Source: a virus (taxonomy: Duplodnaviria; Heunggongvirae; Uroviricota; Caudoviricetes). Taken from it: 64,000 nucleotides of DNA. The translations under genes and the position numbers were made by a program. A model generated the notes under the pieces. The model did not search any database. It worked only from the letters and a program-made list of their open reading frames with translations, and was not told the DNA's origin. The stretch is from IMG/VR virus record IMGVR_UViG_3300043467_001216; one strand, written 5' to 3'. Shown here piece by piece: positions 23,346 to 58,010 of this stretch (position 1 is the first letter of the stretch; every line of letters starts with the position of its first letter).

Positions 23346-23864
23346 ATGAAAGTATTATTTTTAGACCACGACGGAGTTATCTGTTTGTCGAGTAATTGGG
23401 GTGGACGTTTTAAGAAAGTGGGGTTTGATAGTAACCCTGAAACACCATTGGATATCCGAATGGATAACTTTGATGTTAAGGCGGTTAAACTATTAAACAG
23501 TATTGTTGATATTACCGGTTGTGAACTTGTTATATCATCAGATTGGAAATTACAAGGGACATTAGAACAAATGAAAAAAATGTTTGTTACCCGTGGAATT
23601 AAACCACCAATTGACTACACACCTAATTTAAAGACTTTTGATGAGGGTGCGGAACATTTATTAAAAGCGACTCTTGATTTCGAGGAAATACGAGTATTAG
23701 AAATTAAAAAGTATTTGGAAGACCATCCTGAAGTAACACATTGGGTTGCGGTTGATGATATGGACTTATCTAAATTAGAAAATTTCGTTCAAACTAAACG
23801 ACCATATAATGAAGGAATCAAACAATCCGGAGTTAAAGATAAAATTATTGATTTTCTAAAATAA
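23346..23864 (+). CDS. HAD-superfamily phosphatase (RNA-repair-associated type)
   Basis: FLDHDGV, ISSDW, WVAVDD. Confidence 0.8.
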   Translation: MKVLFLDHDGVICLSSNWGGRFKKVGFDSNPETPLDIRMDNFDVKAVKLLNSIVDITGCELVISSDWKLQGTLEQMKKMFVTRGIKPPIDYTPNLKTFDEGAEHLLKATLDFEEIRVLEIKKYLEDHPEVTHWVAVDDMDLSKLENFVQTKRPYNEGIKQSGVKDKIIDFLK

Positions 23865-40371: not shown

Positions 40372-40433
40372 AAAAACTTGACTACTAAAGAACTTTTACT
40401 AAATTTGTTGATATATATTAAAAGAATTAAAAA

Positions 40434-40553
40434 ATGAGAACAACTGAACAACATATTAAACAAGTAAGTCAATCGAAACAGATTCGCGTGTGTAGCGTAT
40501 CGTATCCGATGTGGTTTATCACGTCATATGGTTCAGAAAACATATTAAGTTAG
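40434..40553 (+). CDS. Leader peptide 1 (39 aa, MRTTEQHIKQVSQSKQIRVCSVSYPMWFITSYGSENILS)
   Basis: Codons 6-29 are all cognate to tRNAs of the downstream block; antiterminator near the stop. Confidence 0.8.
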   Translation: MRTTEQHIKQVSQSKQIRVCSVSYPMWFITSYGSENILS

Positions 40554-40612
40554 TTATAAACGTATAACAATTTGATAAGACCCCTGAACCAAAAGTTCGG
40601 GGGTTTTTTTTT
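40529..40612 (+). promoter_or_regulatory. Attenuator 1 (antiterminator/terminator)
   Basis: TGGTTCAG 40529-40536 complementary to CTGAACCA 40584-40591 in terminator AGACCCCTGAAC-CAAAA-GTTCGGGGG-T9. Confidence 0.8.
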
Positions 40613-40621
40613 GAAATAAAA

Positions 40622-40688
40622 TTTGGAAGTTACGAAATGAAATTCGTACCTTTGACAACAGAAAAGTTCATTGACATATTGGTTTAGA
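40622..40688 (+). promoter_or_regulatory. Bacteroidota-type promoter + boxA-like leader
   Basis: TTTG 40622, TACCTTTG 40647-40654, GTTCATTGACATATTGGTTTAGA 40666-40688. Confidence 0.75.
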
Positions 40689-40695
40689 TAAATAA

Positions 40696-40782
40696 GGAGA
40701 GTATCTGGCAGGATGAAGAGCTACTCTTGAAAAGTAGTAAGACGTGTAATGGGTCTTGTGGGTTCGAGTCCCACACTCTCCT
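40696..40782 (+). tRNA. tRNA-Ser(UGA)
   Basis: GGAGAGT/ACTCTCC acceptor, CTACT-CTTGAAA-AGTAG, long variable arm, T-arm. Confidence 0.85.
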
Positions 40783-40797
40783 CAAAAAAATAGAGTT

Positions 40798-40923
40798 ATG
40801 GTAAAAAGAGAAGTATTGACGGGAACATTTGAGTCAAGTAAAAGATTTTTAAGACAAGAGCCTAAAGAGGTTAAACTAAAATTCAGATTAATTAGAAAAT
40901 TAATCAAAAGGTTACATAAGTAA
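40798..40923 (+). CDS. Small basic protein (41 aa, MVKREVLTGTF...)
   Basis: Translated manually, between tRNAs. Confidence 0.5.
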   Translation: MVKREVLTGTFESSKRFLRQEPKEVKLKFRLIRKLIKRLHK

Positions 40924-40930
40924 CCATTAT

Positions 40931-41005
40931 TGTCCTGTAGGCGACGTTGGCAGAGCCACCACACTTTGAATGTGGATATCGCAGGTTCGATTCCTGCCGG
41001 GACAA
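40931..41005 (+). tRNA. tRNA-Gln(UUG)
   Basis: CCACA-CTTTGAA-TGTGG, full cloverleaf. Confidence 0.9.
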
Positions 41006-41088
41006 CAATAAAACAATTAGTTATTTCACGTTAAAAGATGGTCTTATAGGCTCACGAAGGCCGTGTCAACATCAATAACTAATAAATT

Positions 41089-41161
41089 GGGTCAGTTGCC
41101 AAGTTGGTCAAGGCACTTGTCTGAAGAACAAGCAATGGGGGTTCGATTCCCTCCTGTCCCA
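41089..41161 (+). tRNA. tRNA-Phe(GAA)
   Basis: CTTGT-CTGAAGA-ACAAG. Confidence 0.9.
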
Positions 41162-41241
41162 CGAGGTCCTGAATTAACAGGATACCCCCACCTCCGATAT
41201 GGCAGTCAGTCCGTTAAGCTGATGAAGTGGGGTTTTTATAT

Positions 41242-41316
41242 GGTGGCTATAGTGTTAGTGGTCGAGCACGTAAGTTTGTGGTTCTTATAGGTTGGGTTCG
41301 AATCCCAATAGTCACC
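41242..41316 (+). tRNA. tRNA-His(GUG)
   Basis: G-1:C73, TAAGT-TTGTGGT-TCTTA. Confidence 0.9.
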
Positions 41317-41572
41317 CAATTAATTTTTAAAACTTAGAAATCACAGAGACAGAAAAAACATTTATCAGTTCCGACTTAGAAAATGGTCGATGGTTATCTC
41401 CAATCGTAAGTGAAAGGAAATGGCAAGAAGAAAAATTAGTTGAGATATTCGGTCATTATCCGAACGCAAGTCCTAAATGGCTATATCTCAATGGTTTGAT
41501 ACACATTGCATTAGATTACATTAAACAAAATGAAGAAAAAATTTGACAAGTTGTAGGTTAAAAACCACAACT

Positions 41573-41770
41573 ATGAGTACAAACATCAACAGAGCAAAAC
41601 TGAACAAAGCACAAAATGGTAGAGAATACCGAAATAGATTGATAAATGACTTTTATCCAATTTATTGGGATGACGGAATTACTTTCTACGGAAACAAAAT
41701 GAGTTATCAAGTTAGAATGTATAAGACTTGGAAACACTACAGAAAAACTCAATATAAGGTAATAACCTAA
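41573..41770 (+). CDS. Small basic hypothetical protein
   Basis: MSTNINRAKL...YKTWKHYRKTQYK. Confidence 0.7.
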   Translation: MSTNINRAKLNKAQNGREYRNRLINDFYPIYWDDGITFYGNKMSYQVRMYKTWKHYRKTQYKVIT

Positions 41771-41860
41771 TAATGGGTGAATATTAGGTTAAAACCTAAT
41801 AATTGATGAATATAAGGCTGGAACCTTATAATGGTCGATTATAAGTCTCCAACCTTATTA
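41764..41860. repeat. 29-bp-period tandem palindromic repeat (3 units + partial)
   Basis: AACCTAATA-N9-TATTAGGTT-type units at 41764, 41793, 41822, 41851. Confidence 0.75.
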
Positions 41861-41863
41861 TTT

Positions 41864-41935
41864 GGTTCCTTGGTGTAATGGATAGCACCTATCGCTACGG
41901 ACGATAATGTCAAGGTTCGAGTCCTTGGGGGACTA
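41864..41935 (+). tRNA. tRNA-Arg(ACG)
   Basis: TATCG-CTACGGA-CGATA. Confidence 0.9.
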
Positions 41936-41975
41936 CGTATCCGATGTGTGATACCGAGCTAGGTCGGTGTAATTT

Positions 41976-42063
41976 GGAAGATTACCCAAGTTGGTGAAGG
42001 GGTCACATTGCTAACGTGATAGGTCTGAAATATGACGCGTGGGTTCGAGCCCCACATCTTCCG
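41976..42063 (+). tRNA. tRNA-Ser(GCU)
   Basis: TCACA-TTGCTAA-CGTGA, long variable arm. Confidence 0.9.
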
Positions 42064-42070
42064 CAGAAAC

Positions 42071-42140
42071 ACCGAGGCTTAGAGGAAAAGAACTATCTCT
42101 CATAAGGATGGTCAAGTGGGTTCGAAACCCATACTCGGTA
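42071..42140 (+). tRNA. Atypical tRNA(CAU) with shortened D region
   Basis: ACCGAG/CTCGGT, TATCT-CTCATAA-GGATG, GTGGG-TTCGAAA-CCCAT. Confidence 0.6.
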
Positions 42141-42184
42141 CAAAAAAATATTACAAAGGTATTGTGAGAATGGAAATGATTACT

Positions 42185-42230
42185 TATCTTTGTTAGACAA
42201 AAGAAAAGGTCTTTGACATATTGGTTTAGA
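42185..42230 (+). promoter_or_regulatory. Promoter + boxA-like leader
   Basis: TATCTTTG 42185-42192; GGTCTTTGACATATTGGTTTAGA 42208-42230. Confidence 0.75.
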
Positions 42231-42239
42231 AAGAAATAA

Positions 42240-42314
42240 CGGGGTGTAGTCTTGGGGTGAGACGCTTGGTTTGGGACCAAGAGGCGGCAGGTTCGACACC
42301 TGCCACCCCGACCA
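42240..42314 (+). tRNA. tRNA-Pro(UGG)
   Basis: CTTGG-TTTGGGA-CCAAG, encoded CCA. Confidence 0.92.
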
Positions 42315-42322
42315 AAAATTAA

Positions 42323-42396
42323 CGGAATGTAGCTCAGCTGGTAAGAGCATTCGCCTGATACGTGAAAGGTCGTAGGTTCGAACCCTACCATTCCGA
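42323..42396 (+). tRNA. tRNA-Ile(GAU)
   Basis: TTCGC-CTGATAC-GTGAA. Confidence 0.9.
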
Positions 42397-42522
42397 CTAC
42401 TTAATACCGAATCGGGTTTGTCAGTAAAGTGGGACCCTGCGACTATGACACTTAGGTGTAATTAGAGAAAATGACATTAAATAACCCACCACGGAAGGTG
42501 TTATCGGTGACCTTCTATTTTT

Positions 42523-42597
42523 GACTTCGTAGCTCAGTTGGTTTAGAGCAGTACACTTTTAATGTACGGGTCGTGAGTTCGATTCTCACCGGGGTCA
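42523..42597 (+). tRNA. tRNA-Lys(UUU)
   Basis: GTACA-CTTTTAA-TGTAC. Confidence 0.93.
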
Positions 42598-42605
42598 CAA
42601 TAATT

Positions 42606-42677
42606 AGCCCTTTAGCTTAAAGGTGAAGTACTTGTTTTACATACAAGATAGTGTAGGTTCGAGTCCTACAGGGGCTA
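42606..42677 (+). tRNA. tRNA-Val(UAC)
   Basis: CTTGT-TTTACAT-ACAAG. Confidence 0.9.
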
Positions 42678-42787
42678 CAAAATGTTAAGTTGGGTTTCCT
42701 AGTGGTAACGGTATGAACTATAGTAAGTAAGCCACAAGATTCTAGTAATAAGCGACAGATGGATTACTCGCGACTTAATATTTAATT

Positions 42788-42861
42788 GGACAGATGCCTG
42801 AGTGGTTTAAAGGGGTGGACTGCAAATCCACTATCCGGGGGTTCGAATCCCTCTCTGTCCT
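42788..42861 (+). tRNA. tRNA-Cys(GCA)
   Basis: GTGGA-CTGCAAA-TCCAC, U73. Confidence 0.93.
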
Positions 42862-42887
42862 CAATGAAATATATTGTTTCATTATTT

Positions 42888-42959
42888 GCATCATTGGTGT
42901 AATGGCTAGCATAAATGGTTCCAACCCATTTGGTCAGGGTTCGAGTCCTTGGTGGTGCG
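42888..42959 (+). tRNA. tRNA-Trp(CCA)
   Basis: AATGG-TTCCAAC-CCATT, G73. Confidence 0.88.
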
Positions 42960-43030
42960 CAAATATCGTAGGAGAGTTGATTAAGTTCAAACCCGCCGTT
43001 AAATTGTGAAGGACAATCTACGATATATTC

Positions 43031-43113
<83 letters not shown>

Positions 43114-43191
43114 CAATAAAAAAAAATTTAAACCAATTGTTGACACTTTTCAAAACTTTGATATATTTAATTAGTAAAGAATAACAAAATT

Positions 43192-43266
43192 ATGCAAAAC
43201 TTGAATAACATACTAATAGCGAGAACGGAGGGAGACAATCCTTGTGTATCGGAGAAGGTGTGTTAA
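43192..43266 (+). CDS. Leader peptide 2 (24 aa, MQNLNNILIARTEGDNPCVSEKVC)
   Basis: Codons 3-16 are all cognate to tRNAs of the downstream block; antiterminator just before the stop. Confidence 0.8.
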   Translation: MQNLNNILIARTEGDNPCVSEKVC

Positions 43267-43322
43267 TTCATTAAACATAAAATTTAAATGAAACCCTTCT
43301 CCAAAAGAGAGGGGTTTTTTTT
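43251..43322 (+). promoter_or_regulatory. Attenuator 2 (antiterminator/terminator)
   Basis: GGAGAAGG 43251-43258 complementary to CCTTCTCC 43295-43302 in terminator AAACCCTTCTC-CAAAA-GAGAGGGG-T8. Confidence 0.8.
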
Positions 43323-43332
43323 GTTACCTACG

Positions 43333-43404
43333 TTTGGTAAATCAAAATAAAAGCATTAGATTTGTCAGACAAAAGAAAAAAGTTCTTTGACATATTGGTT
43401 TAGA
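43333..43404 (+). promoter_or_regulatory. Promoter + boxA-like leader
   Basis: TTTG 43333, TAGATTTG 43357-43364, GTTCTTTGACATATTGGTTTAGA 43382-43404. Confidence 0.75.
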
Positions 43405-43411
43405 AGTTAAT

Positions 43412-43484
43412 ATCCTCGTGACGGAAAGGTATACGTCCTTGTCTTAGAAACAAGGTTTTGTGGGTTCGAATCCCACCGAGGATA
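43412..43484 (+). tRNA. tRNA-Leu(UAG), short variable region
   Basis: CTTGT-CTTAGAA-ACAAG; variable region only GTTTT. Confidence 0.85.
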
Positions 43485-43490
43485 CATAAT

Positions 43491-43564
43491 GGTTCAGTAG
43501 CTCAACAGGTGAGAGCAGGACGCTTATATCGTCAAGGTTGGGGGTTCAAATCCCTCCTGAACTA
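43491..43564 (+). tRNA. tRNA-Ile(UAU)
   Basis: GACG-CTTATAT-CGTC, A73. Confidence 0.8.
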
Positions 43565-43595
43565 CTGAAAAAATAAAAAATAAAAAATAAAAATT

Positions 43596-44111
43596 ATGTC
43601 AATATATAGTGTTGGTAGAAAAACTTACGGTTCTGAAAATATTAAAATTTACGAATGGGGTGAAGGTAAAACAATTAAAATAGGGTCTTTTTGTTCAATA
43701 GCAACAAATATTCAAATTTTTATTGGGGGTAATCATAGACCTGATTGGATTACAACATTCCCATTTCCACATTCGTTTAGTGTGGGTCATCCGTCATCTA
43801 ATGGTGATGTTATAATTGGTAATGATGTTTGGATTGGTGCTAATGCAACAATAATGTCAGGTGTTATTATTGGTGATGGTGCCGTTATTGCAAATAATTC
43901 TCACGTAGTAAAAAATGTTGAACCTTACACTATTGTTGGAGGTAATCCAGCTAAACCTATCCGTAAAAGATTTGATGATGAAACAATTCAAAAACTTTTA
44001 AAATTAAAATGGTGGGATTTTAATGATGATGAGATAAATAGAATAACCCCAATTTTATGTTCTAGTAATATAAACGAATTGTTTGAATTATATAAGGATA
44101 AATTACTTTAA
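43596..44111 (+). CDS. CatB/Vat-like hexapeptide-repeat acetyltransferase
   Basis: IGSFCSIA..GGNH, IGNDVWIG, IGDGAVIA, GGNPAK.IRKRF, WWD. Confidence 0.92.
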   Translation: MSIYSVGRKTYGSENIKIYEWGEGKTIKIGSFCSIATNIQIFIGGNHRPDWITTFPFPHSFSVGHPSSNGDVIIGNDVWIGANATIMSGVIIGDGAVIANNSHVVKNVEPYTIVGGNPAKPIRKRFDDETIQKLLKLKWWDFNDDEINRITPILCSSNINELFELYKDKLL

Positions 44112-44142
44112 AAAAAGTCTTGTATAATCAAAAGTAAATACT

Positions 44143-44193
44143 TAGATTTGTAAGACAAAAGAAAACAAAAGGTCTTTGACATATCGGAATAGA
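44143..44193 (+). promoter_or_regulatory. Promoter + boxA-like leader
   Basis: TAGATTTG 44143-44150; GGTCTTTGACATATCGGAATAGA 44171-44193. Confidence 0.75.
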
Positions 44194-44204
44194 AAAAATA
44201 AAAT

Positions 44205-44278
44205 GTCGCGTTAGACGAGTGGTTTAAGTCGTCACCCTTTCAAGGTGAAAATCACGGGTTCGAATCCCGTACGCGATA
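44205..44278 (+). tRNA. tRNA-Glu(UUC)
   Basis: TCACC-CTTTCAA-GGTGA. Confidence 0.92.
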
Positions 44279-44283
44279 CATAT

Positions 44284-44355
44284 CGCGGGATGGGGGAGTG
44301 GTCACCCCGCTGGGCTCATAACCCTGAGACACAGGTTCGAATCCTGTTCCCGCTA
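44284..44355 (+). tRNA. Initiator tRNA-fMet(CAU)
   Basis: C1 mismatch, GGG-CTCATAA-CCC. Confidence 0.88.
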
Positions 44356-44361
44356 CTAAAT

Positions 44362-44546
44362 AAAACAAGTGAGGACGGTGAGTAAACCCTCACTGTCTAT
44401 AAATCCCAAGACGGTACTTGATTCGCGGTAGTAAAGTTATTGAGGGTAGAATTACTATAAGTCTGGGATTAGCTACCCAAATGACGAAAATGTAATCACC
44501 GAGTAAAATTGGTTATGATGTGTAATGGTCACGAAAAACTTGTTTT
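44362..44546 (+). ncRNA. Unknown pseudoknotted structured RNA (~185 nt)
   Basis: Closing stem AAAACAAGT/ACTTGTTTT, several inner helices, GGGTAG/CTACCC pseudoknot. Confidence 0.6.
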
Positions 44547-44554
44547 TTTAAAAT

Positions 44555-44626
44555 GGTCTATTAGTGTAGTGGCTAACATACATCCCTGTCACGGATGTGC
44601 CGCGAGTTCGATTCTCGCATAGACCG
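44555..44626 (+). tRNA. tRNA-Asp(GUC)
   Basis: CATCC-CTGTCAC-GGATG, G73. Confidence 0.92.
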
Positions 44627-44847
44627 CGGGAGTGTACACAGTAGAGTTCTGTTTGAGAGAGGATTGTAACACGCACTTTAAAATGAGGTTACAAGGTATC
44701 AAACCGTTTATTCAGTTTTGACCGATAAAAACTGACGATTTTTTGAGAAATTTTAAGTCGATATAAAATTTCTTCGTGATATTAGTAGGTTTGGCCGCCT
44801 CATCACGTTAATGTGATGAAACATACCCAATGGAGTAATCACAACTT

Positions 44848-44920
44848 GCGGTAGTCGTATAATGGTTTATTATATAACCTTGCCAAGGTTAGGACGGAGG
44901 TTCGATTCCTCTCTACCGCT
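44848..44920 (+). tRNA. tRNA-Gly(GCC)
   Basis: TAACC-TTGCCAA-GGTTA, U73. Confidence 0.9.
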
Positions 44921-44970
44921 CAAAATAAAGGAGTTATAACCCTTTATATGGATGGTTCGAAACATCCGAT

Positions 44971-45042
44971 TGAGTATGGTGTACGGTGCACGGATGATGG
45001 TAATACGGATTCAAGATTAAGGTTCAATTCCTTATTATTCAG
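44971..45042 (+). pseudogene. Degenerate tRNA-like element (possibly Thr GGU)
   Basis: Acceptor, D and T arms present; anticodon stem does not pair. Confidence 0.45.
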
Positions 45043-45066
45043 CAAAGAGAAATAACACTCTTAATT

Positions 45067-45139
45067 GGTCTCTTAGTATAATGGCTTATTATTCTGGCTT
45101 TGTAACCCAGAGATAACGGTTCGAATCCGTTAGGGACCT
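45067..45139 (+). tRNA. tRNA-Thr(UGU)
   Basis: CTGGC-TTTGTAA-CCCAG. Confidence 0.88.
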
Positions 45140-45145
45140 CACAAT

Positions 45146-45217
45146 GGACTATTAGCTCAGCGGTAGAGCAATCGGCTGTTAACCGATAGGTCGTAGGTTC
45201 GAATCCTTCATGGTCCG
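45146..45217 (+). tRNA. tRNA-Asn(GUU)
   Basis: ATCGG-CTGTTAA-CCGAT, G73. Confidence 0.92.
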
Positions 45218-45276
45218 CAAAAAAGAGGAAAAACTTGTGTAGGTGCCTCAAGGGACTGCTGCCCTACTACACTCAA

Positions 45277-45356
45277 GGACCTGTGGTGAAATTGGTATAC
45301 ACGCTTTCTTTAAGCGGAAGTTCTTAGGATTGTGGGTTCGACTCCCACCAGGTTCA
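45277..45356 (+). tRNA. tRNA-Leu(UAA)
   Basis: CTTTC-TTTAAGC-GGAAG, extended variable arm. Confidence 0.88.
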
Positions 45357-45442
45357 CAATAGTGTCTCAGAACGCTCTGATAAGGTAACTTATTAACGAT
45401 GAGGTCTCGGTAGACAGAACGCGTCTGATTCTACCCAAATTA

Positions 45443-45515
45443 GCGGGTGTCGTATAGTGGATTATTATATTAGACTTCCAATTTAAAGACGAGGGTTCGA
45501 TTCCCTCCACCCGCT
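45443..45515 (+). tRNA. tRNA-Gly(UCC)
   Basis: TTAGA-CTTCCAA-TTTAA, U73. Confidence 0.9.
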
Positions 45516-45521
45516 CAAAAT

Positions 45522-45621
45522 AGACAACAAACTCTTCACCGAGGAAAACCTTTAAAACAGATTCACAACTATAAAGGTCGTTGAGTTGGGTAATAATAAA
45601 TGTGAGTATTACCTGTTGTCT
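45522..45621 (+). ncRNA. Unknown kissing-loop structured RNA (~100 nt)
   Basis: AGACAACA/TGTTGTCT closing stem; loops ATTCACA and TGTGAGT are complementary. Confidence 0.55.
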
Positions 45622-45630
45622 TTTTATTAT

Positions 45631-45706
45631 GGGGGTATCGTATAATGGCTTATTACGGTAGATTTGCAATTTACAAATCTGGTTTCGATTACCAGTACCT
45701 CCACCA
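45631..45706 (+). tRNA. tRNA-Ala(UGC)
   Basis: G3:U70, GTAGA-TTTGCAA-TTTAC, encoded CCA. Confidence 0.92.
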
Positions 45707-45712
45707 TATTTT

Positions 45713-45785
45713 GGTCCTATGATGTAACTGAATAGCATAAGCCCCTTCTAAGGGTTTCGTTGGGGTTTGAATCCCTGTAGGACTA
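45713..45785 (+). tRNA. tRNA-Arg(UCU)
   Basis: AGCCC-CTTCTAA-GGGTT. Confidence 0.88.
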
Positions 45786-46145
45786 CTCGTTGTGATGACG
45801 GATACGATGACAATTTGAACAAAGTAAATCACATTTATCAAGTTCTTTAATTATTTTATCCCAAGAACGTTTTCGTAAGTGAGTCCATTCAACATCTTTT
45901 TGTGATGGGTCACGATGATGAAAATCAAAAATAACATATGGTGATTTAGGGTATGAATTAGAACAATCTAAACATTTACCACCTTTATACTCAATAGCTT
46001 TTATTTTTGTTTTAATCCAACGTTCAGAACAATATTTATTGAAGCAGACTTTACATTTTGATTGTTTTGAAGGTCTATCGTTTTGTTGATAGAATTCAGT
46101 TACTGATTTTTCTTCATTACACGAAGTACAAATTTTAGTTTCCAT
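45783..46145 (-). CDS. Free-standing HNH homing-endonuclease-like protein (start METKIC)
   Basis: CxxC pairs, FDFHHRDP, CDLLCSNCHRIRH; TATTTAT upstream. Confidence 0.88.
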   Translation of the reverse strand: METKICTSCNEEKSVTEFYQQNDRPSKQSKCKVCFNKYCSERWIKTKIKAIEYKGGKCLDCSNSYPKSPYVIFDFHHRDPSQKDVEWTHLRKRSWDKIIKELDKCDLLCSNCHRIRHHNE

Positions 46146-46191
46146 AACAATAAATATGTGGATAGTATCAAAAAGACTAATTCCATAATCA

Positions 46192-46213
46192 GGGTTTGAA
46201 TCCCTGTGGGGCA
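46192..46213 (+). repeat. Duplicated tRNA 3' end (T-arm remnant)
   Basis: GGGTTTGAATCCCTGT identical to 45763-45778 of tRNA-Arg(UCU). Confidence 0.75.
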
Positions 46214-46217
46214 ACAA

Positions 46218-46419
46218 TGAGTTCGAGAAACTCAATGGGTTTTTAAGAGTCCCTCAAAACTTAACGGAACTGATACCATCCACGTTACGGGGTATTCATT
46301 GGGAATCGGAAGGAAGACTCTCCTATCCCCCAAGTAAGAGTTGATTTTTAAGCGGTAAGACGCGTTGGGTTTTGCATAAGAAAACTGTGAATATCTACTC
46401 TCCGTAATCTCAGGAGGGG
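46218..46419 (+). ncRNA. Unknown structured RNA (~200 nt) ending in a UAAUCUCA-loop hairpin
   Basis: Multiple hairpins; TAATCTCAG shared with the 3' end of the large ncRNA at 57914. Confidence 0.5.
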
Positions 46420-46421
46420 TT

Positions 46422-46528
46422 TATTTATTGACCGAGTGGTTTAAGGTTGAGCATACATAAAGTCTGGGAATGTGGTATGTATGATACCTATACACGGGGA
46501 CTCACAGGTTCGAATCCTGTATTGATAA
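46422..46528 (+). ncRNA. tRNA-like RNA with enlarged anticodon arm
   Basis: Canonical D and T arms; CATACATA/TATGTATG stem with 16-nt loop containing CTGGGAA. Confidence 0.6.
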
Positions 46529-49403: not shown

Positions 49404-49748
49404 ATGAAAACAATTATAGCTGGAGGTAGAGATTTTGAAGATTATAATCTACTACGAGAAAAGTGTGATAAGTTGATTAATTCAAACCTAACAGAAATTG
49501 TTAGTGGTCGTGCTAAAGGTGCTGACACATTAGGTGAGAGATATGCCAAAGAACGAGGATTTGACGTTAAGTTGTTTCCTGCGGATTGGAAAACTCACGG
49601 AAGAAAAGCGGGGCATATTAGAAATAAACAAATGGCCGATTATGGTGAAATGTTGATAGCATTTTGGGATGGTAAAAGTAGTGGTACTAAAAATATGATT
49701 GAGAATGCCAATAAATTAGGATTAATAGTTCATATTGTTAATTACTAG
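49404..49748 (+). CDS. SLOG/YspA-like nucleotide-binding protein
   Basis: IIAGGRDF, SGRAKGAD, AGHIRN, FWDGKSSGT. Confidence 0.85.
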   Translation: MKTIIAGGRDFEDYNLLREKCDKLINSNLTEIVSGRAKGADTLGERYAKERGFDVKLFPADWKTHGRKAGHIRNKQMADYGEMLIAFWDGKSSGTKNMIENANKLGLIVHIVNY

Positions 49749-49760
49749 ATATTTATTAAT

Positions 49761-50066
49761 ATGATTAACGAAGAAATTGATAAAATTAAATATTTGTTCG
49801 GTTATAAACCCGGTGTGGTTATTAGTGAACAAACAACAGGTACAACAACACCCACGACGGGTACGACTACACCAGCAACAACACCACCTGCTGAGACTAA
49901 AATAACACAAAAAGACCTTGACAAATTAAGAGATTGTGCCGACTATAATTCAACAGGTTCTAAATCAACAAACAAACTTACTAAAGGTGAAGAAACTAAA
50001 GAATTTCTAGTCTTTAAAGGAAGTGACGGTAAACCGGCGTGTAAGAAACCTAAAGAGAAAAAATAA
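49761..50066 (+). CDS. Late protein with INEEI leader, Thr-rich
   Basis: TATTTATTAATATG. Confidence 0.75.
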   Translation: MINEEIDKIKYLFGYKPGVVISEQTTGTTTPTTGTTTPATTPPAETKITQKDLDKLRDCADYNSTGSKSTNKLTKGEETKEFLVFKGSDGKPACKKPKEKK

Positions 50067-50128
50067 AATTTAATAGATAATAAGTTAAGAGGGGTTTTTA
50101 AATCCCTCTTTTTTTTTATATTTGTGGT

Positions 50129-50587
50129 ATGGAAAAAGTAAGAATATATTTAGATGATGTGAGAACACCGGTTGATAAAGATTGGTTAGTTGTTAGAAAT
50201 TTTCACGAGTTTATTAATTTGGTAAATAAAGTTGGTTTAACTAATATATCATTAATCTCATTGGACCACGATTTAGGTGATACTGCGATGAAAGAATACT
50301 TCAATAACGTATCTAAAAATTATAAATTAGATTATGAAAATATTGAGGAAAAAACCGGATATGATGCTGCTAAATGGTTAGTAACAGAATTTTACGAGAT
50401 AAACGAAAACCGTATTAATATGTCAAGATTTGATAAGAAACAAAAACCTATCAAATTTCCTGATGTTGTAGTTCACTCGGCAAATCCGATTGGGTCAGCA
50501 AACATTATGGGTTATATCAATAACTTCCTAATGAATGAGGGACAAGAACAAACTTGCGTTAGAGTTAAAATAGAACACACTGTTTAA
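50129..50587 (+). CDS. Cyclic-phosphate-processing receiver-like phosphatase
   Basis: YLDDVRTP, SLDHDLG, KTGYD, VHSANPIG. Confidence 0.75.
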   Translation: MEKVRIYLDDVRTPVDKDWLVVRNFHEFINLVNKVGLTNISLISLDHDLGDTAMKEYFNNVSKNYKLDYENIEEKTGYDAAKWLVTEFYEINENRINMSRFDKKQKPIKFPDVVVHSANPIGSANIMGYINNFLMNEGQEQTCVRVKIEHTV

Positions 50588-50609
50588 TTTTTTTTTATAT
50601 ATTAGCCTT

Positions 50610-51092
50610 ATGAACGTTTTTATATTAGATTTCGATGTTAAGAAATGTGCTGAATATCATTGTGATAAGCACGTAGTTAAAATGATACTTGAGACTGCAC
50701 AACTTTTATGTGGTGTTCATCACGTAATTGAGACTCAAACTGAGATACCTTATAGGTTATCTCATAAGAACCACCCAAGTGCGATATGGTCGAGAGAGTC
50801 GTTATCTAATTATCTATATTTGTGTGAGTTAGGTTTAGAGTTATGTTATGAATACACATACAGATATGGTAAACGTCATAAATCACAAGATGTTATTGAG
50901 TGGTGTTTAGATAAAAAACCAAATATCGTTGACAAAGGATTTACTGAACCCCCAAAGGCAATGCCTGACGAATATAAAGTTGACAGTGTTGTCGATTCGT
51001 ATAGAAATTATTATAAAGGAGCCAAATCAGGATTTGCGGTATGGAAAAACAGAGAAGTTCCTGAATGGTATAAAGAATTAGAATTAGTATGA
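50610..51092 (+). CDS. Pyrimidine-dimer DNA glycosylase-like protein
   Basis: MNVFILD...HCDKHVVKMILETAQLL, HKNHPS, YRNYY. Confidence 0.8.
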   Translation: MNVFILDFDVKKCAEYHCDKHVVKMILETAQLLCGVHHVIETQTEIPYRLSHKNHPSAIWSRESLSNYLYLCELGLELCYEYTYRYGKRHKSQDVIEWCLDKKPNIVDKGFTEPPKAMPDEYKVDSVVDSYRNYYKGAKSGFAVWKNREVPEWYKELELV

Positions 51093-51757
51093 TAAAAATT
51101 GAAAAAGATAGAAAAGGAAATTTACCTGATGTTTGGATAACATCAGATACTCACTACAATCACTCAAACATTTGTCGTGGGACTACTAATTGGAGAAAAC
51201 CTGATGGTTCAGTTCCAATCAAAGAAACTCGTGACTTCAAATCGTTGGATATAATGAACGATATGATTGTGGATAATATAAACCAATATGTTAAACAAGA
51301 TGATGTGTTAATTCACTTGGGTGATTGGTCATTTGGTGGTTTTGAATTCATTAGAAAATTCAGAGAAAGAATTATATGTAAAAACATACACTTAATTTTG
51401 GGTAACCACGACCACCACATTGAGAATAACAAAGAAAACATTCAATCGTTATTCTCAAGTGTTTCACAATATAACACATTGGTATTGGGTAAAATTAATA
51501 TTAGATTGTTTCACTACCCGATTGATTCTTGGAATGGATTGAATAAAGGTGAAATACATCTACACGGTCACTGTCACTTACCTAATGATATTAAATTAGG
51601 GAAAGGAAAACGAATGGATGTTGGTATGGACGGACATCCTGAATTTAGACCATACCACATTGTTGATGACATTCTACCAATAATGTCAAAACAACCAATT
51701 CATTCACATTTGGAACACGACCACCATACAGAAGAAATGTTAAACGTAGTAGGATAA
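51089..51757 (+). CDS. Calcineurin-like metallophosphoesterase
   Basis: SDTHYNH, HLGDW, GNHD, FHYP, HGHCH, DVGMD. Confidence 0.9.
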   Translation: MIKIEKDRKGNLPDVWITSDTHYNHSNICRGTTNWRKPDGSVPIKETRDFKSLDIMNDMIVDNINQYVKQDDVLIHLGDWSFGGFEFIRKFRERIICKNIHLILGNHDHHIENNKENIQSLFSSVSQYNTLVLGKINIRLFHYPIDSWNGLNKGEIHLHGHCHLPNDIKLGKGKRMDVGMDGHPEFRPYHIVDDILPIMSKQPIHSHLEHDHHTEEMLNVVG

Positions 51758-51763
51758 AAGATT

Positions 51764-52114
51764 ATGGAAGATTACGACAAAAGAGATTTATTTTTAGAGT
51801 CTATCAAAATGTTAGAAGAACTAAGAAAAATACAAGAAGAAAACAAAGACAATAGAGTCAAAGAAATTGGTGATAGAGTTATTGTTTGGGATGGTAGTTA
51901 TAACATAGATAAAAACACCTCAAAACATCGTAGTGGTATTGATAAATTATTTCAAAACCCCGGTATTGTTATTCAAACAAACTGTGATATAAACCATTTT
52001 GAACCATTGATTGAAAAATTAGTGATTCTTGATTTATTGATTAGATTTGAAACGGGTGAAGAAGTATACACTAGTTCAGATATGGTTAAACGAATTGATA
52101 AAGATAATGTATGA
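51764..52114 (+). CDS. Hypothetical protein
   Basis: 116 aa ORF. Confidence 0.7.
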   Translation: MEDYDKRDLFLESIKMLEELRKIQEENKDNRVKEIGDRVIVWDGSYNIDKNTSKHRSGIDKLFQNPGIVIQTNCDINHFEPLIEKLVILDLLIRFETGEEVYTSSDMVKRIDKDNV

Positions 52115-52311
52115 AAAAATTTAATTACAAAAAATATCAGTTATTAGATTGTTTAGATGAAATATCATCAACACAAAAAATGATTGATTTACATAGTGAT
52201 AATTCAGATAGAATTAGTAATTTTATGATGTCTCAATATAGAGATATGAGAAAACAAAGTATTATAGAATTTAATAAAATATCATATGGAAAGAAAATTA
52301 GCAACGATTAG
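52111..52311 (+). CDS. Hypothetical protein
   Basis: 66 aa ORF in operon. Confidence 0.6.
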   Translation: MKKFNYKKYQLLDCLDEISSTQKMIDLHSDNSDRISNFMMSQYRDMRKQSIIEFNKISYGKKISND

Positions 52312-53320
52312 ACAAATTGACAACATCCAACCAATCGAAGGTGCGGATATGATTGAATTAGCAACCGTTGGGGGGTGGAAAGTCGTAGTTGCAAAAAATG
52401 TTAACCACAAAGTTGGGGATTTAGTTGTTTACTGTGAGATTGACTCTTTTTTACCAATCGAACCTGAGTTTGAATTTTTACGTAAAAGTTCTTACAAGAA
52501 AATGGCCGACGGTACTGAAGGTTTCAGATTAAAAACTATTAAATTAAGAGGACAAGTTTCTCAAGGTTTAATTTTACCATTAAAAGATGCTTACGAAGTT
52601 TTCAAAAGAAACACTCCCAATATAGATATGGATTGGTTTGAAGGTTTAGAAGTAACTGAAATGTTAAACATTGTAAAATACGAACCACCTGTTCCTGCAC
52701 AATTATCAGGACAAGTTAAAGGTATGTTCCCATCTTTTTTAAAGAAAACTGATGAGGAAAGAATTCAAAACTTGACAAGAGAGTTTGAAGGGTACAAGAA
52801 CGAAGTGTTTTATGTGACTGAAAAGTTAGATGGTTCTAGTGTAACTTACTACGTTAAAGACGGTGTGTTTGGTGTATGTTCTCGTAACTTAGATTTAGTT
52901 GAGAGTGAAGGTAACTCAATGTGGAAATTTGCAATCACAAGTGGATTAAAAGAACGTTTACTAGCGTTAGATAGAAACATTGCGGTCCAAGGGGAAATCA
53001 TTGGTGAGGGTATTCAAGGTAACCCATATAAAATCATCGGACAAACTGTTAGATTGTTTAATGGTTTTGATATTGATAAGTATGAATATTTATCTTTGGA
53101 TGATTTACTTAAATTATCTAAATGGTTAGAGGTAAAAACAGTTCCAATCTTAGATTTAGAATTTAGATTACCTGACACAATTGATGAGTTATTATCTTAT
53201 GCCGATAGTAAATCAGTATTGAATGAAAAGTTCGATAGAGAAGGAATTGTAATTCGTTCTCACGATAGAAAAATCAGTTTTAAGGTGATTTCTAATAAAT
53301 TTTTATTAAATGAAAAATGA
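52286..53320 (+). CDS. RNA ligase (DRB0094/Rnl2-like family)
   Basis: PIEGAD.IE, EIDS, LRGQVSQG, KTDEERIQN, EKLDGSS, QGE, EGIV, FKVISN. Confidence 0.9.
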   Translation: MERKLATIRQIDNIQPIEGADMIELATVGGWKVVVAKNVNHKVGDLVVYCEIDSFLPIEPEFEFLRKSSYKKMADGTEGFRLKTIKLRGQVSQGLILPLKDAYEVFKRNTPNIDMDWFEGLEVTEMLNIVKYEPPVPAQLSGQVKGMFPSFLKKTDEERIQNLTREFEGYKNEVFYVTEKLDGSSVTYYVKDGVFGVCSRNLDLVESEGNSMWKFAITSGLKERLLALDRNIAVQGEIIGEGIQGNPYKIIGQTVRLFNGFDIDKYEYLSLDDLLKLSKWLEVKTVPILDLEFRLPDTIDELLSYADSKSVLNEKFDREGIVIRSHDRKISFKVISNKFLLNEK

Positions 53321-54258
53321 AATTTTTAATATTTTTATTAATGTTATGTTTGTCTGTGGTTGTTCACGGGCAAACATATCTTGTTGACCAACACTTTTCA
53401 AATGTATCACCAACAGGGTGGTCGTCAACCTCTAATGTGTGGGTGTTTAACCGAAATGAGACGGCCACAGGTAATTATCGAGGTGTGTTTGACGCGACAA
53501 AATATTCGGCAAGATTTTCATCGGCAGCTAATGGTAATTCAATTTATATTTACATACCTATTAATTTTGTTAATAGTAATAGTTACACAATTACTTTTTA
53601 CACTAAAAGAGCCTGCTCAGTTACGGTTAACACTAATGAATTACCAAATCAAACAACATTATTAACAACTGATACTCAAACTAACTCAAACTGTAATTCA
53701 AATTGGAACACCTGGTATAAATGGTCATTTACTGTAGTTCCATCTTATACAGGTTCAGGTTATTTTCAAATATGGATTAAAACTGTGTATGGTGGTCCAA
53801 CATCGGTATATTTAGATGATTTATCAATATATGAGTCACCACCGGTATCCTTACCGATTGATTTGTTATACTTTAAAGGTAAACAAACTGAAGAAGGTAA
53901 TTTACTTGAATGGGCAACTGCAACTGAAACTAATAATCAATATTTTACAATCTATAAAACGTATTATCCAATTAATTGGAAAGAAATTGCTAAAGTTGAT
54001 GGTGTTGGAACTTCACCATTTCAACATTATTACAAGTATTTAGAAAGAGATTATTTTAATGACATTTCATATTATTATTTAACTCAAACCGATTTTGACG
54101 GTAAAACTAAAAATTTTGAAATTATATCTATAGACAATCGTAACATCACACCAGTATTAATTAAGATAACAAATCTTTTAGGTCAAGAAGTTACATTAGA
54201 TTCACCCGGTGTTAAATTTTTTCACTATTCAGACGGTACTATTATAAAAAGAATTTAG
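53317..54258 (+). CDS. Secreted protein with Bacteroidota-type C-terminal module
   Basis: Signal peptide; LPIDLLYFKG...W.TATETNN..F...YY.L.QTDFDG. Confidence 0.75.
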   Translation: MKFLIFLLMLCLSVVVHGQTYLVDQHFSNVSPTGWSSTSNVWVFNRNETATGNYRGVFDATKYSARFSSAANGNSIYIYIPINFVNSNSYTITFYTKRACSVTVNTNELPNQTTLLTTDTQTNSNCNSNWNTWYKWSFTVVPSYTGSGYFQIWIKTVYGGPTSVYLDDLSIYESPPVSLPIDLLYFKGKQTEEGNLLEWATATETNNQYFTIYKTYYPINWKEIAKVDGVGTSPFQHYYKYLERDYFNDISYYYLTQTDFDGKTKNFEIISIDNRNITPVLIKITNLLGQEVTLDSPGVKFFHYSDGTIIKRI

Positions 54259-54270
54259 TATATTTGTTGT

Positions 54271-55326
54271 ATGAAAGCAACGTTAGAAAAATATTACAAC
54301 GATGGATTATTGTACAAACAAGTACATTCAACTTTACCATTAACTATATGGAATTACACTGAGAAAGTTCAGTTTGAAGACTTATGGGATGAGGTAACCT
54401 TGATGTGCCGTGGTTTAGTAACTGACGATAACGGTAATATAGTTGCAAGACCATTCAGAAAATTCTTCAATATGGAAGAAGGGAAACATACTTCAACTGA
54501 TGAATTCAAAGTCTATGAAAAAATGGATGGTTCATTGGGTATATTTTTCCACTATGAAGGTGAATGGGTGATGGCAACTCGTGGGTCATTTACTTCTGAC
54601 CAATCGGTAAAAGGTATGGAAATGTTATCTAAATACGACTACAACAAATTACATAAAGATTTCACTTACTTATTTGAAATAATATATTCTGACAACAGAA
54701 TAGTTTGTTCTTATGATTTTGAAGATGTTGTTTTACTTGGTGCGGTAAACACTAAAGACGATTACGAAGTTAGTTTACACGGTGACTCAGATATAAGAAT
54801 ACAAAACTTAGTGAAAAACATAGGTCTTAATGTAGTTAAACGTTATGATGGTATATCAGACTATTCAGTGTTAAAAGAGATGGTTAGAGACGATGCTGAG
54901 GGGTTTATAGTTCACTTCTCAAATGGTAATAGAATGAAAGTTAAAGGTGTTGAATACTTACGTCTACACAAAATAATGACTAACGTATCAACTACTGGTA
55001 TATGGGAATGTTTAAAAAATGGTGATGATGTTTTAGAATTGATGAAAGAAGTTCCTGACGAATTCTACAAAAAAATAAAATCTTACGTTAAAGACTTGAG
55101 ATACGCTCACTACTCAATATCCGAATACTGTGGTAAAATGCACGACGGATTTAGATACGGAAAATATGGTGACGTTGACCCTGAACCATCTAAGAAAGAA
55201 TACGCAGAGTTTGTTATGAAAAACATAAAAGAAGGTCTTAGAGGTGTAATGTTTCAGATGTGGGATAAAAAAGATTACGATGAAACTATATGGAAACTAA
55301 TAAGACCGGAATTCAAAAAGTTATAA
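54271..55326 (+). CDS. rnlA: T4 Rnl1-like RNA ligase
   Basis: CRGLV, ARPFRKFFN, EKMDGSL, TRGSF, FEII, EGFIV, MKVK..EY. Confidence 0.9.
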   Translation: MKATLEKYYNDGLLYKQVHSTLPLTIWNYTEKVQFEDLWDEVTLMCRGLVTDDNGNIVARPFRKFFNMEEGKHTSTDEFKVYEKMDGSLGIFFHYEGEWVMATRGSFTSDQSVKGMEMLSKYDYNKLHKDFTYLFEIIYSDNRIVCSYDFEDVVLLGAVNTKDDYEVSLHGDSDIRIQNLVKNIGLNVVKRYDGISDYSVLKEMVRDDAEGFIVHFSNGNRMKVKGVEYLRLHKIMTNVSTTGIWECLKNGDDVLELMKEVPDEFYKKIKSYVKDLRYAHYSISEYCGKMHDGFRYGKYGDVDPEPSKKEYAEFVMKNIKEGLRGVMFQMWDKKDYDETIWKLIRPEFKKL

Positions 55327-57049: not shown

Positions 57050-57925
57050 TTATCCGTTCAGAATGTTTGATGATGAGACCCTTGTGGTTGATTTTGAGTA
57101 ACAAACTGATAAAGATATTTGGCCGTGTATGGTCATTAAATAAACTACGAAAGTAGGATAAAGTGGACCCCCAAGTGTAACGGGTCTGCGTCTTGGGAAA
57201 CTGAGGTCGAGTACACAAGCGGGATACCGTATAACCTTTAGTATCGAGGTCAACGATGTAGAGAAAGTGGTTATATGATTTGGTGATGTGGGTCATCAAA
57301 TTGAGGTGGGAACACCAATAGGAATAACTCGTAGGAATTATGTGAGAAATAGTGTTATCCGATATTATTATTACGAGTTCCAATATAAGAGGTGACTTAA
57401 AACCGAAAGGTATGAAAACAAACAGGTGGTGCTGACATTTTCCTTGATTATTCTTTACCAAAAGAATTTTCTCGAAGTAATCTTAAAATATTGAGGTAGG
57501 GATACTTCACAGAGTAGTTTGGTATTTCGTTGTTCAAAAGACGACGAATCTAAAAGACGGACCACTACTTTGATTCATCCACAACACAAAAACTTTAATT
57601 TACAAGGTTAATGTAAAAATTAAATTATAAATTTAAGCAAAAGTGTTCGTCAGGTAATAGTGAAAGGTGACTACATAGTAATGAGCAGTTCATTGCCTAG
57701 GAAGACCGCAAGTCGACCTAAATTCTTACCAAAAACCTCTAATCTCGCAAGGATTAATTGGGAAGGCATTCTCGAAGAGAGTTGAGTAATGAGAGAGTAA
57801 CTATTATCTCAAGGAGTGGTTCACCTAAAAAACCGTCACTGAGGAATACTTCTCAAAAGGAAGTGGATAAGAAGGGAAACAATAATCCTTCAAAAGGTTC
57901 TCAATAATACGTATAATCTCAGCGT
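57050..57925 (+). ncRNA. Large structured ncRNA, GOLLD-like
   Basis: ~0.9 kb with no credible ORF, raised GC, many GNRA hairpins, own promoter, tRNA immediately downstream; boundaries approximate. Confidence 0.7.
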
Positions 57926-57937
57926 TTTTTTATATAT

Positions 57938-58010
57938 AGCAGGGGGGAGGTAAGGTATCTCATCGGTCTCATAAGCCGACCCAAGCTGGTTCGATTCCGG
58001 TCCGTTGCTA
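57938..58010 (+). tRNA. tRNA-Met(CAU) (imperfect acceptor stem)
   Basis: TCGGT-CTCATAA-GCCGA, GCTGG-TTCGATT-CCGGT. Confidence 0.75.

Follow-up and report, generated by a model that had tools for sequence, protein, structure and literature searches.

The stretch of DNA analysed here (the window, 64,000 nucleotides) raises the question of what a short reading frame that ends just before an intrinsic terminator, in front of a long array of tRNA genes, does for the phage that carries it. The window is part of a 126-kb linear fragment of an uncultured virus (CheckV completeness 42%), and its genome is about 31% GC and has 27 tRNA genes. Because it encodes a bS21 protein beside its portal, terminase, protease and capsid genes, we place this phage with the freshwater bS21 jumbo phages, which are predicted to infect Bacteroidetes (PMC9723584). 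The passages of that paper that concern tRNAs give 5–25 per genome for the bS21-encoding phages, and those passages say nothing about how the tRNAs are controlled. No close cultured relative was found by blastn against isolated phages, the only matches being to single tRNAs and an acetyltransferase gene. A TATTTAT motif lies 11–50 nt upstream of 52 of the 154 ORFs in the whole genome (vs. 1% in coding DNA), among them the portal, terminase and protease head genes, and is likely a phage late promoter.

The reading frame, which we call leader 1, and the tRNA genes behind it are as follows:

40434..40553, forward strand: leader 1 ORF, 39 codons (39 amino acids and TAG)
40449..40520, forward strand: control region, codons 6–29, every codon read by block-1 tRNAs and all 14 of these represented
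40696-45786, forward strand: tRNA array, 25 tRNAs called by ARAGORN and one atypical CAU tRNA
40696..43114, forward strand: tRNA block 1, 14 tRNAs (13 from ARAGORN and the Rfam-scored atypical CAU tRNA)
42071-42143, forward strand: atypical CAU tRNA, found by Rfam only (23 bits, below the cut-off) and missed by ARAGORN

A terminator at 43290 divides the array into two blocks with complementary anticodon sets. Block 1 runs Ser-UGA, Gln, Phe, His, Arg-ACG, Ser-GCU, atypical CAU, Pro, Ile-GAU, Lys, Val, Cys, Trp, Tyr. The atypical CAU tRNA has normal acceptor, anticodon and T arms and a poor D arm, is conserved in two related arrays (L001 and L141), and is probably the elongator tRNA-Met that is matched by the ATG codon of leader 1. 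The leader start lies in an A-rich context with no Shine-Dalgarno sequence, as is usual in Bacteroidota.

Re-reading of the ORF gave codons 6–29 exactly as listed in the initial annotation, and the claim made there, that these 24 consecutive codons all match block-1 tRNAs, holds under strict wobble rules with 14 of 14 anticodons represented. Its extent needs a small correction: codons 28–29 sit at or past the switch boundary described below, which leaves about codons 6–28 as the part that does the controlling. The block-1-readable set comprises 27 codons, or 43% of codon use in the phage proteome, and with proteome codon frequencies the probability of a 24-codon in-set run is 1.4e-9 per position; given 24 in-set codons, coverage of all 14 anticodons carries a further p of 0.002–0.02. 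The run is the longest of its kind in the six frames of the 126-kb genome (the next is 17), and within real ORFs such runs reach at most 14. The codons of leader 1 are also unusual in themselves, with a GC3 of 0.42 vs. 0.21 and an Arg codon, CGC, that makes up 0.3% of Arg codons in the proteome. It had been noted that the run is rich in G- and C-ending codons, and suggested that wobble-read codons increase sensitivity to stalling, as they may. Over all the leaders collected below, enrichment is seen for G, since where a U34 tRNA is the only one to serve a box the G-ending codon is used 60 times vs. 23 expected; it is not seen for C, since C-ending codons number 30 vs. 33 expected. General GC enrichment was rejected as the source of the odd codons because only the G-ending ones are enriched. 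At the sequence level this fits selection of slow or rare codons, which theory ties to attenuator sensitivity (PMC1183508).

The RNA of leader 1 is predicted to form three structures, and a second, shorter leader with a similar arrangement precedes the second block:

40500..40531, forward strand: candidate 1:2 (pause or anti-antiterminator) hairpin, -10.7 kcal/mol
40529..40591, forward strand: antiterminator, with an outer helix (40529-40536 with 40584-40591) and an inner helix (40543-40577)
40577..40612, forward strand: intrinsic terminator, 13-pair stem and U tract, about -19 kcal/mol, z -4.0
43192..43266, forward strand: leader 2 ORF, 24 codons
43251-43258 with 43295-43302, forward strand: antiterminator 2, from folding
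43290-43323, forward strand: terminator 2 (antiterminator 2 and terminator 2 together span 43251..43323)
43412..45786, forward strand: tRNA block 2, from ARAGORN, with its own -7 boxes and boxA

The ORF of leader 1 ends 27 nt before the terminator, which stands between it and the first tRNA gene. Folding bears out the outer-helix pairing proposed earlier, and shows that the 5' arm of the terminator can pair alternatively with the tail of the ORF; the two structures are mutually exclusive, and the 5' strand of the antiterminator lies inside the ORF. The small hairpin at 40553-40568, which had been taken to bridge the gap, is likewise real and forms the tip of the 15-bp helix 40543-40577. Before the 3' arm of the terminator is made, the whole antiterminator has an energy of -20.7 kcal/mol (z -4.9). 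The candidate pause hairpin overlaps the first bases of the antiterminator strand, resembling the trp 1:2 hairpin, and is retained at -8.9 to -11.4 kcal/mol in 15 of 17 relatives (it is shorter in the other two). When ribosome occlusion was modelled by masking the RNA to 15 nt beyond each A-site codon, the antiterminator of leader 1 survived up to and including codon 28, was weakened at 29 and was lost at 30, and that of leader 2 held through codon 16 and failed at 17. The switch boundary thus coincides with the end of the cognate run in both leaders (codons 28/29 and 16/17), and in this model a stall on the regulatory codons would free the antiterminator and passage of the ribosome would block it. 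At equilibrium with a stalled ribosome the terminator fold is still favoured (-27.1 vs. -20.3 kcal/mol), so the switch would need co-transcriptional kinetic trapping, on which known attenuators likewise depend.

Codons 3–16 of leader 2 are all readable by block 2 and represent 10 of its 11 elongator anticodons (p about 1e-5 per site). Block 2 runs Leu-UAG, Ile-UAU, Glu, initiator-like CAU, Asp, Gly-GCC, Thr, Asn, Leu-UAA, Gly-UCC, Ala, Arg-UCU, and the two leaders divide isoacceptors as the blocks do: leader 1 has CGC with Arg-ACG and ATT/ATC with Ile-GAU in block 1, and leader 2 has AGA with Arg-UCU and ATA with Ile-UAU in block 2. At the position of tRNA-Ile(UAU) (43491-43565) a CAU tRNA is found in the relatives L002, L125 and L144, and both pair with ATA in leader 2. 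Block 2 also contains an inserted gene for a Vat-like hexapeptide-repeat acetyltransferase (43596-44111), followed by a fresh promoter and boxA, which is absent from L001. Four conserved, structured non-tRNA spacers lie in the array (41160-41235, 42400-42515, 44360-44545 and 44970-45030) and match nothing in Rfam; with ARAGORN at a low threshold, the last of them comes out as a pseudo Arg tRNA. Beyond the array there is a tRNA-like element at 46422-46528, also present in L001, with normal D and T arms and an oversized anticodon region. A reverse-strand ORF (45783-46235), for which no Pfam match was found, abuts tRNA-Arg(UCU); it has a TATTTAT motif of its own and, near 46195, a second copy of a tRNA 3' end.

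Relatives of leader 1 were found with a gapped sequence pattern, which gave 18 distinct variants. All preserve the frame, start and stop, and the peptide is conserved within the family; the control codons are 90–99% identical, and the 430 nt of DNA upstream are 19–87% identical. The rare codons TCG, CAG and CCG are invariant, and 12 of the 13 variant codons at positions 6–29 stay within the block-1 set, the exception being codon 29. In the inner helix there are two-sided compensatory changes at three pairs and G-U shifts at others; changes in the outer helix are mostly to G-U.

More distant phages were reached by a scan for the boxA motif (below) that is blind to codons, which gave about 50 tRNA clusters and was then extended. 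The leader was defined by a fixed rule, also codon-blind, as the longest ATG ORF of 14–60 codons that ends 15–60 nt before a terminator preceding a tRNA. Transfer RNAs were called with ARAGORN at a lowered threshold, and some blocks are cut by contig ends; for this window the atypical CAU tRNA was added and one sub-threshold call removed. The rule gave 45 leader/block pairs. Permutation tests used 25 of these from Bacteroidota phages, one per family, which are lineages not fully independent of one another and include two leaders (L158 and L163) with weak antiterminators that may be false. Control-region codons are read by the leader's own block at a fraction of 0.79 vs. 0.45 for permuted blocks, and block anticodons are present in their own leader at 0.75 vs. 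0.44 (0 of 100,000 permutations in each case); for the tail codons past the boundary the values are 0.49 and 0.43. Pairing between a leader tail and the terminator arm that belongs to it has an energy of -13.1 kcal/mol vs. -7.4 when arms are swapped (0 of 100,000), and the leader's own arm was the best of 32 in 20 cases. The arrays are split differently among these phages and the leaders are mostly unrelated, and their codons track their own block. For example, four Gln tRNAs in L010 are preceded by a leader with four Gln codons, and the 15 tRNAs of L156, of Ser, Lys, His, Phe and Trp kinds only, lie behind a leader of those residues; the L173 leader has Asn/Glu/Asp/Tyr/Ile/Cys/Met, that of L150 has His/Ser/Ile/Thr-ACC, and L149 and L170 each have two complementary leader/block pairs. 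L156 and L173 belong to a 308-kb record classed as a provirus (G011), which has many duplicate tRNAs, each block behind a matching leader. No leader was detectable at arrays L157, L161, L165 and L171 or in crAss001.

The same arrangement is present in phages that are in culture. Cellulophaga phage phi4:1 (KC821632) has three leader-terminator-block units and Caulobacter phage phiCbK (JX100813) has two, each leader matching its own block; the middle phi4:1 leader starts with GTG. At phiCbK 49790-52580 (L299) ARAGORN calls Thr, His, Ala and Arg tRNAs, and the leaders contain those residues; the 2012 phiCbK genome paper states that these four tRNAs are absent, and it does not mention attenuation.

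The ORF and its codon match, the alternative folds and the position of the switch boundary, the conservation and compensatory changes among relatives, and the co-variation of leader and antiterminator with the block in unrelated phages all support the attenuator reading put forward in the initial annotation. Judged from sequence and folding models, leader 1 is very probably a ribosome-mediated transcription attenuator, with the supply of working tRNAs as its input and the genes for those same tRNAs as its output. RNA polymerase would start near 40412, with a ribosome translating the leader behind it. When all block-1 codons are read quickly, the ribosome would already sit on 40529-40536 by the time the terminator arm is synthesized, so that the terminator would form and end transcription near 40610. 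A shortage of any one of the 14 tRNAs, whether it has been cut, degraded, left unmodified or uncharged, or diluted, would hold the ribosome on its codon at or before codon 28, and the antiterminator would then form, polymerase would read through and gain boxA antitermination, and block 1 would be transcribed. Fresh tRNA would relieve the stall, giving negative feedback through an OR gate over 14 inputs, and leader 2 would be the same switch for the complementary block 2. With a single codon per tRNA for several species, the sensitivity predicted per input is modest (PMC1183508). Leader-peptide attenuation has been reported as likely in a flavobacterium (PMC9723704).

The likeliest natural trigger would be loss of tRNA to host defence or to infection, and rescue from anticodon nucleases by phage tRNAs is known (PMC11555353). 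An RNA-repair cluster 4–10 kb downstream, at 49404-55326, has genes for SLOG, a cREC receiver, a metallophosphoesterase and two RNA ligases, and an RNA-repair HAD gene lies apart from it at 23346-23864; the ligases, phosphoesterase and HAD gene suggest pressure from tRNA damage. The same switch might instead respond to amino-acid starvation or a general slowing of ribosomes, as any uncharged tRNA or slow ribosome stalls the leader in classical attenuators (PMC1183508), and leaders 1 and 2 jointly cover nearly all amino acids. We think this unlikely, as the match is at the level of the isoacceptor: where a block has only one of the codon boxes for Arg, Ile, Leu or Ser, the leaders choose the matching box in 23 of 27 cases over all leaders (12.4 expected, p 2e-6). 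A general sensor would need no block-specific codons, and extra tRNA presumably could not cure a lack of amino acids.

Whether the leader is the only way into block 1 depends on the promoters, which were called with the Bacteroidota sigma-A consensus (PMC9723704). The initial annotation missed a promoter and boxA between terminator 1 and the first tRNA:

40378..40407, forward strand: predicted leader promoter, Bacteroidota sigma-A type (-33 TTGA, -7 box TAAATTTG)
40622..40654, forward strand: predicted internal sigma-A-type promoter (TTTG, 21 nt, TACCTTTG), 3' of terminator 1
40662..40682, forward strand: boxA antitermination motif of the rRNA-operon type (21-mer match)

The predicted leader promoter, with a start near 40412, is retained in 15 of 15 close relatives and overlaps a sequence close to the phage TATTTAT motif. 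An arrangement in which this late-type motif drives the leaders and the internal promoters are early was considered; the two leader sites score 6.7 and 2.2, both under the training minimum of 7.2. The predicted internal promoter is retained in 14 of 15. The boxA 21-mer lies directly before 23S rRNA in 84 of 120 bacterial genome matches, nearly all of them titled Bacteroidota. The boxA motif occurs four times in the tRNA array, and units of a -7 box and boxA are also found ahead of Pro (about 42185-42225), Leu (about 43357) and Glu (about 44143). A GOLLD RNA (Rfam RF02032, 314 bits for 57510-57925) in the region 57050-58009 also lies behind a -7 box and a boxA-like site, and has a CAU tRNA and then a terminator downstream. 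Block 1 would thus have a second, unattenuated route of transcription from the predicted internal promoter, which with its boxA could supply most of the tRNA. A conserved sigma-A-type promoter with boxA is predicted 3' of terminator 2 as well as of terminator 1 in this family. Since the conserved promoter and boxA lie 3' of the terminator, the leader would act here as a booster and not as the sole on-switch, and in this phage family read-through most likely adds to a basal supply from the predicted internal promoters. Among 29 leader families the first tRNA lies less than 60 nt from the terminator, with no -7 box, in 15, and a -7 box is present in 8; read-through thus looks like the sole route to the tRNAs in those 15.

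The internal promoter and boxA kept in 14 of 15 relatives, and the conservation of the peptide within the family, would also suit a leader and terminator that merely insulate an array expressed constitutively from internal promoters, the leader being vestigial or a small protein that acts elsewhere. We regard this as very improbable: rare synonymous codons are fixed, unrelated peptides in other families match their own blocks, each with its own antiterminator, and half of the families leave no room for an internal promoter. Chance, by which an AT-rich small ORF ahead of a terminator happens to fit a large tRNA set, is helped by a block that reads 43% of codons and by how common short complementary stretches are (the outer-helix octamer has 8 copies in the window), but is ruled out for practical purposes by the permutation tests, by a p of about 1e-9 per site and by its repetition in leader 2 and more than 20 unrelated leaders.

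The preferred reading, attenuation by tRNA supply, has clear antecedents in the leader-peptide attenuators of amino-acid operons, such as those of E. coli thr and ilvGMEDA (which are multivalent) and trpL, hisL, leuL and pheL. Leader 1 shares with them a short leader ORF with regulatory codons, a candidate 1:2 hairpin, an antiterminator over the ORF tail, an intrinsic terminator, and stalling that would give read-through (PMC1183508). It shows every sequence-testable feature of ribosome-mediated attenuation, including a short ORF ahead of the genes that it would control (39 codons, kept in 18 variants) and codons cognate to what the operon supplies (in leader 1, the 25 pairs and the isoacceptor boxes), and it would work like the multivalent thr and ilv attenuators. 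It differs in that the genes under the phage leaders are tRNA genes, not genes for biosynthetic enzymes or synthetases; that leader 1 has 14 inputs, its codons indexing isoacceptors, where the operons have 1–3; that the product would itself be the molecule sensed; and that the leader is encoded by a phage and is followed by boxA and a predicted internal promoter. No Rfam leader family scored above its cut-off, with only weak, terminator-driven matches far below it. The pheM leader of the E. coli pheST operon, which encodes Phe-tRNA synthetase, is attenuated by the level of charged tRNA. It is thus also a case of leader-peptide attenuation of a part of the translation machinery, but with one amino acid, a protein product and a location on the host chromosome. 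T-box riboswitches similarly let the status of tRNA decide between terminator and antiterminator, but they do so by binding the uncharged tRNA itself and lack a leader ORF; Rfam gave no match to a T-box (stem I with specifier loop, antiterminator bulge) at E values up to 1. Leader 1 is a member of neither the amino-acid-operon families nor the T-boxes. In phage T5, tRNA-Tyr counters retron-Eco7 and tRNA-Lys counters PrrC, the phage tRNAs replacing host tRNAs cut by defence nucleases (PMC11555353). The present genes may likewise replace lost host tRNAs. Those of the T5 work differ in that the tRNA is overproduced from a strong promoter, and that paper makes no mention of attenuation (PMC11555353). 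Attenuation of tRNA genes is not described in the literature searched, which excluded most subscription papers.

On balance we favour the view that large phages of Bacteroidota and Caulobacter share a widespread, rewritable feedback sensor, in which tRNA blocks are codon-indexed by their leaders and induced upon depletion by defence nucleases or infection. It has long been asked whether phage tRNA genes support codon usage or replace destroyed tRNAs; tRNA genes that are switched on only by slow reading of their own codons would argue for on-demand replacement, and the question becomes testable with this design in the cultured phages phiCbK and phi4:1, one of whose hosts is genetically tractable. 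Attenuation, familiar from enzyme genes, would then also apply to tRNA genes, here with 14 inputs and a product that feeds back directly, and the leader design would be a compact sensor of tRNA damage. If this is true, the leaders are an inducible counter-defence and a readable record of the tRNAs that each phage expects to lose.
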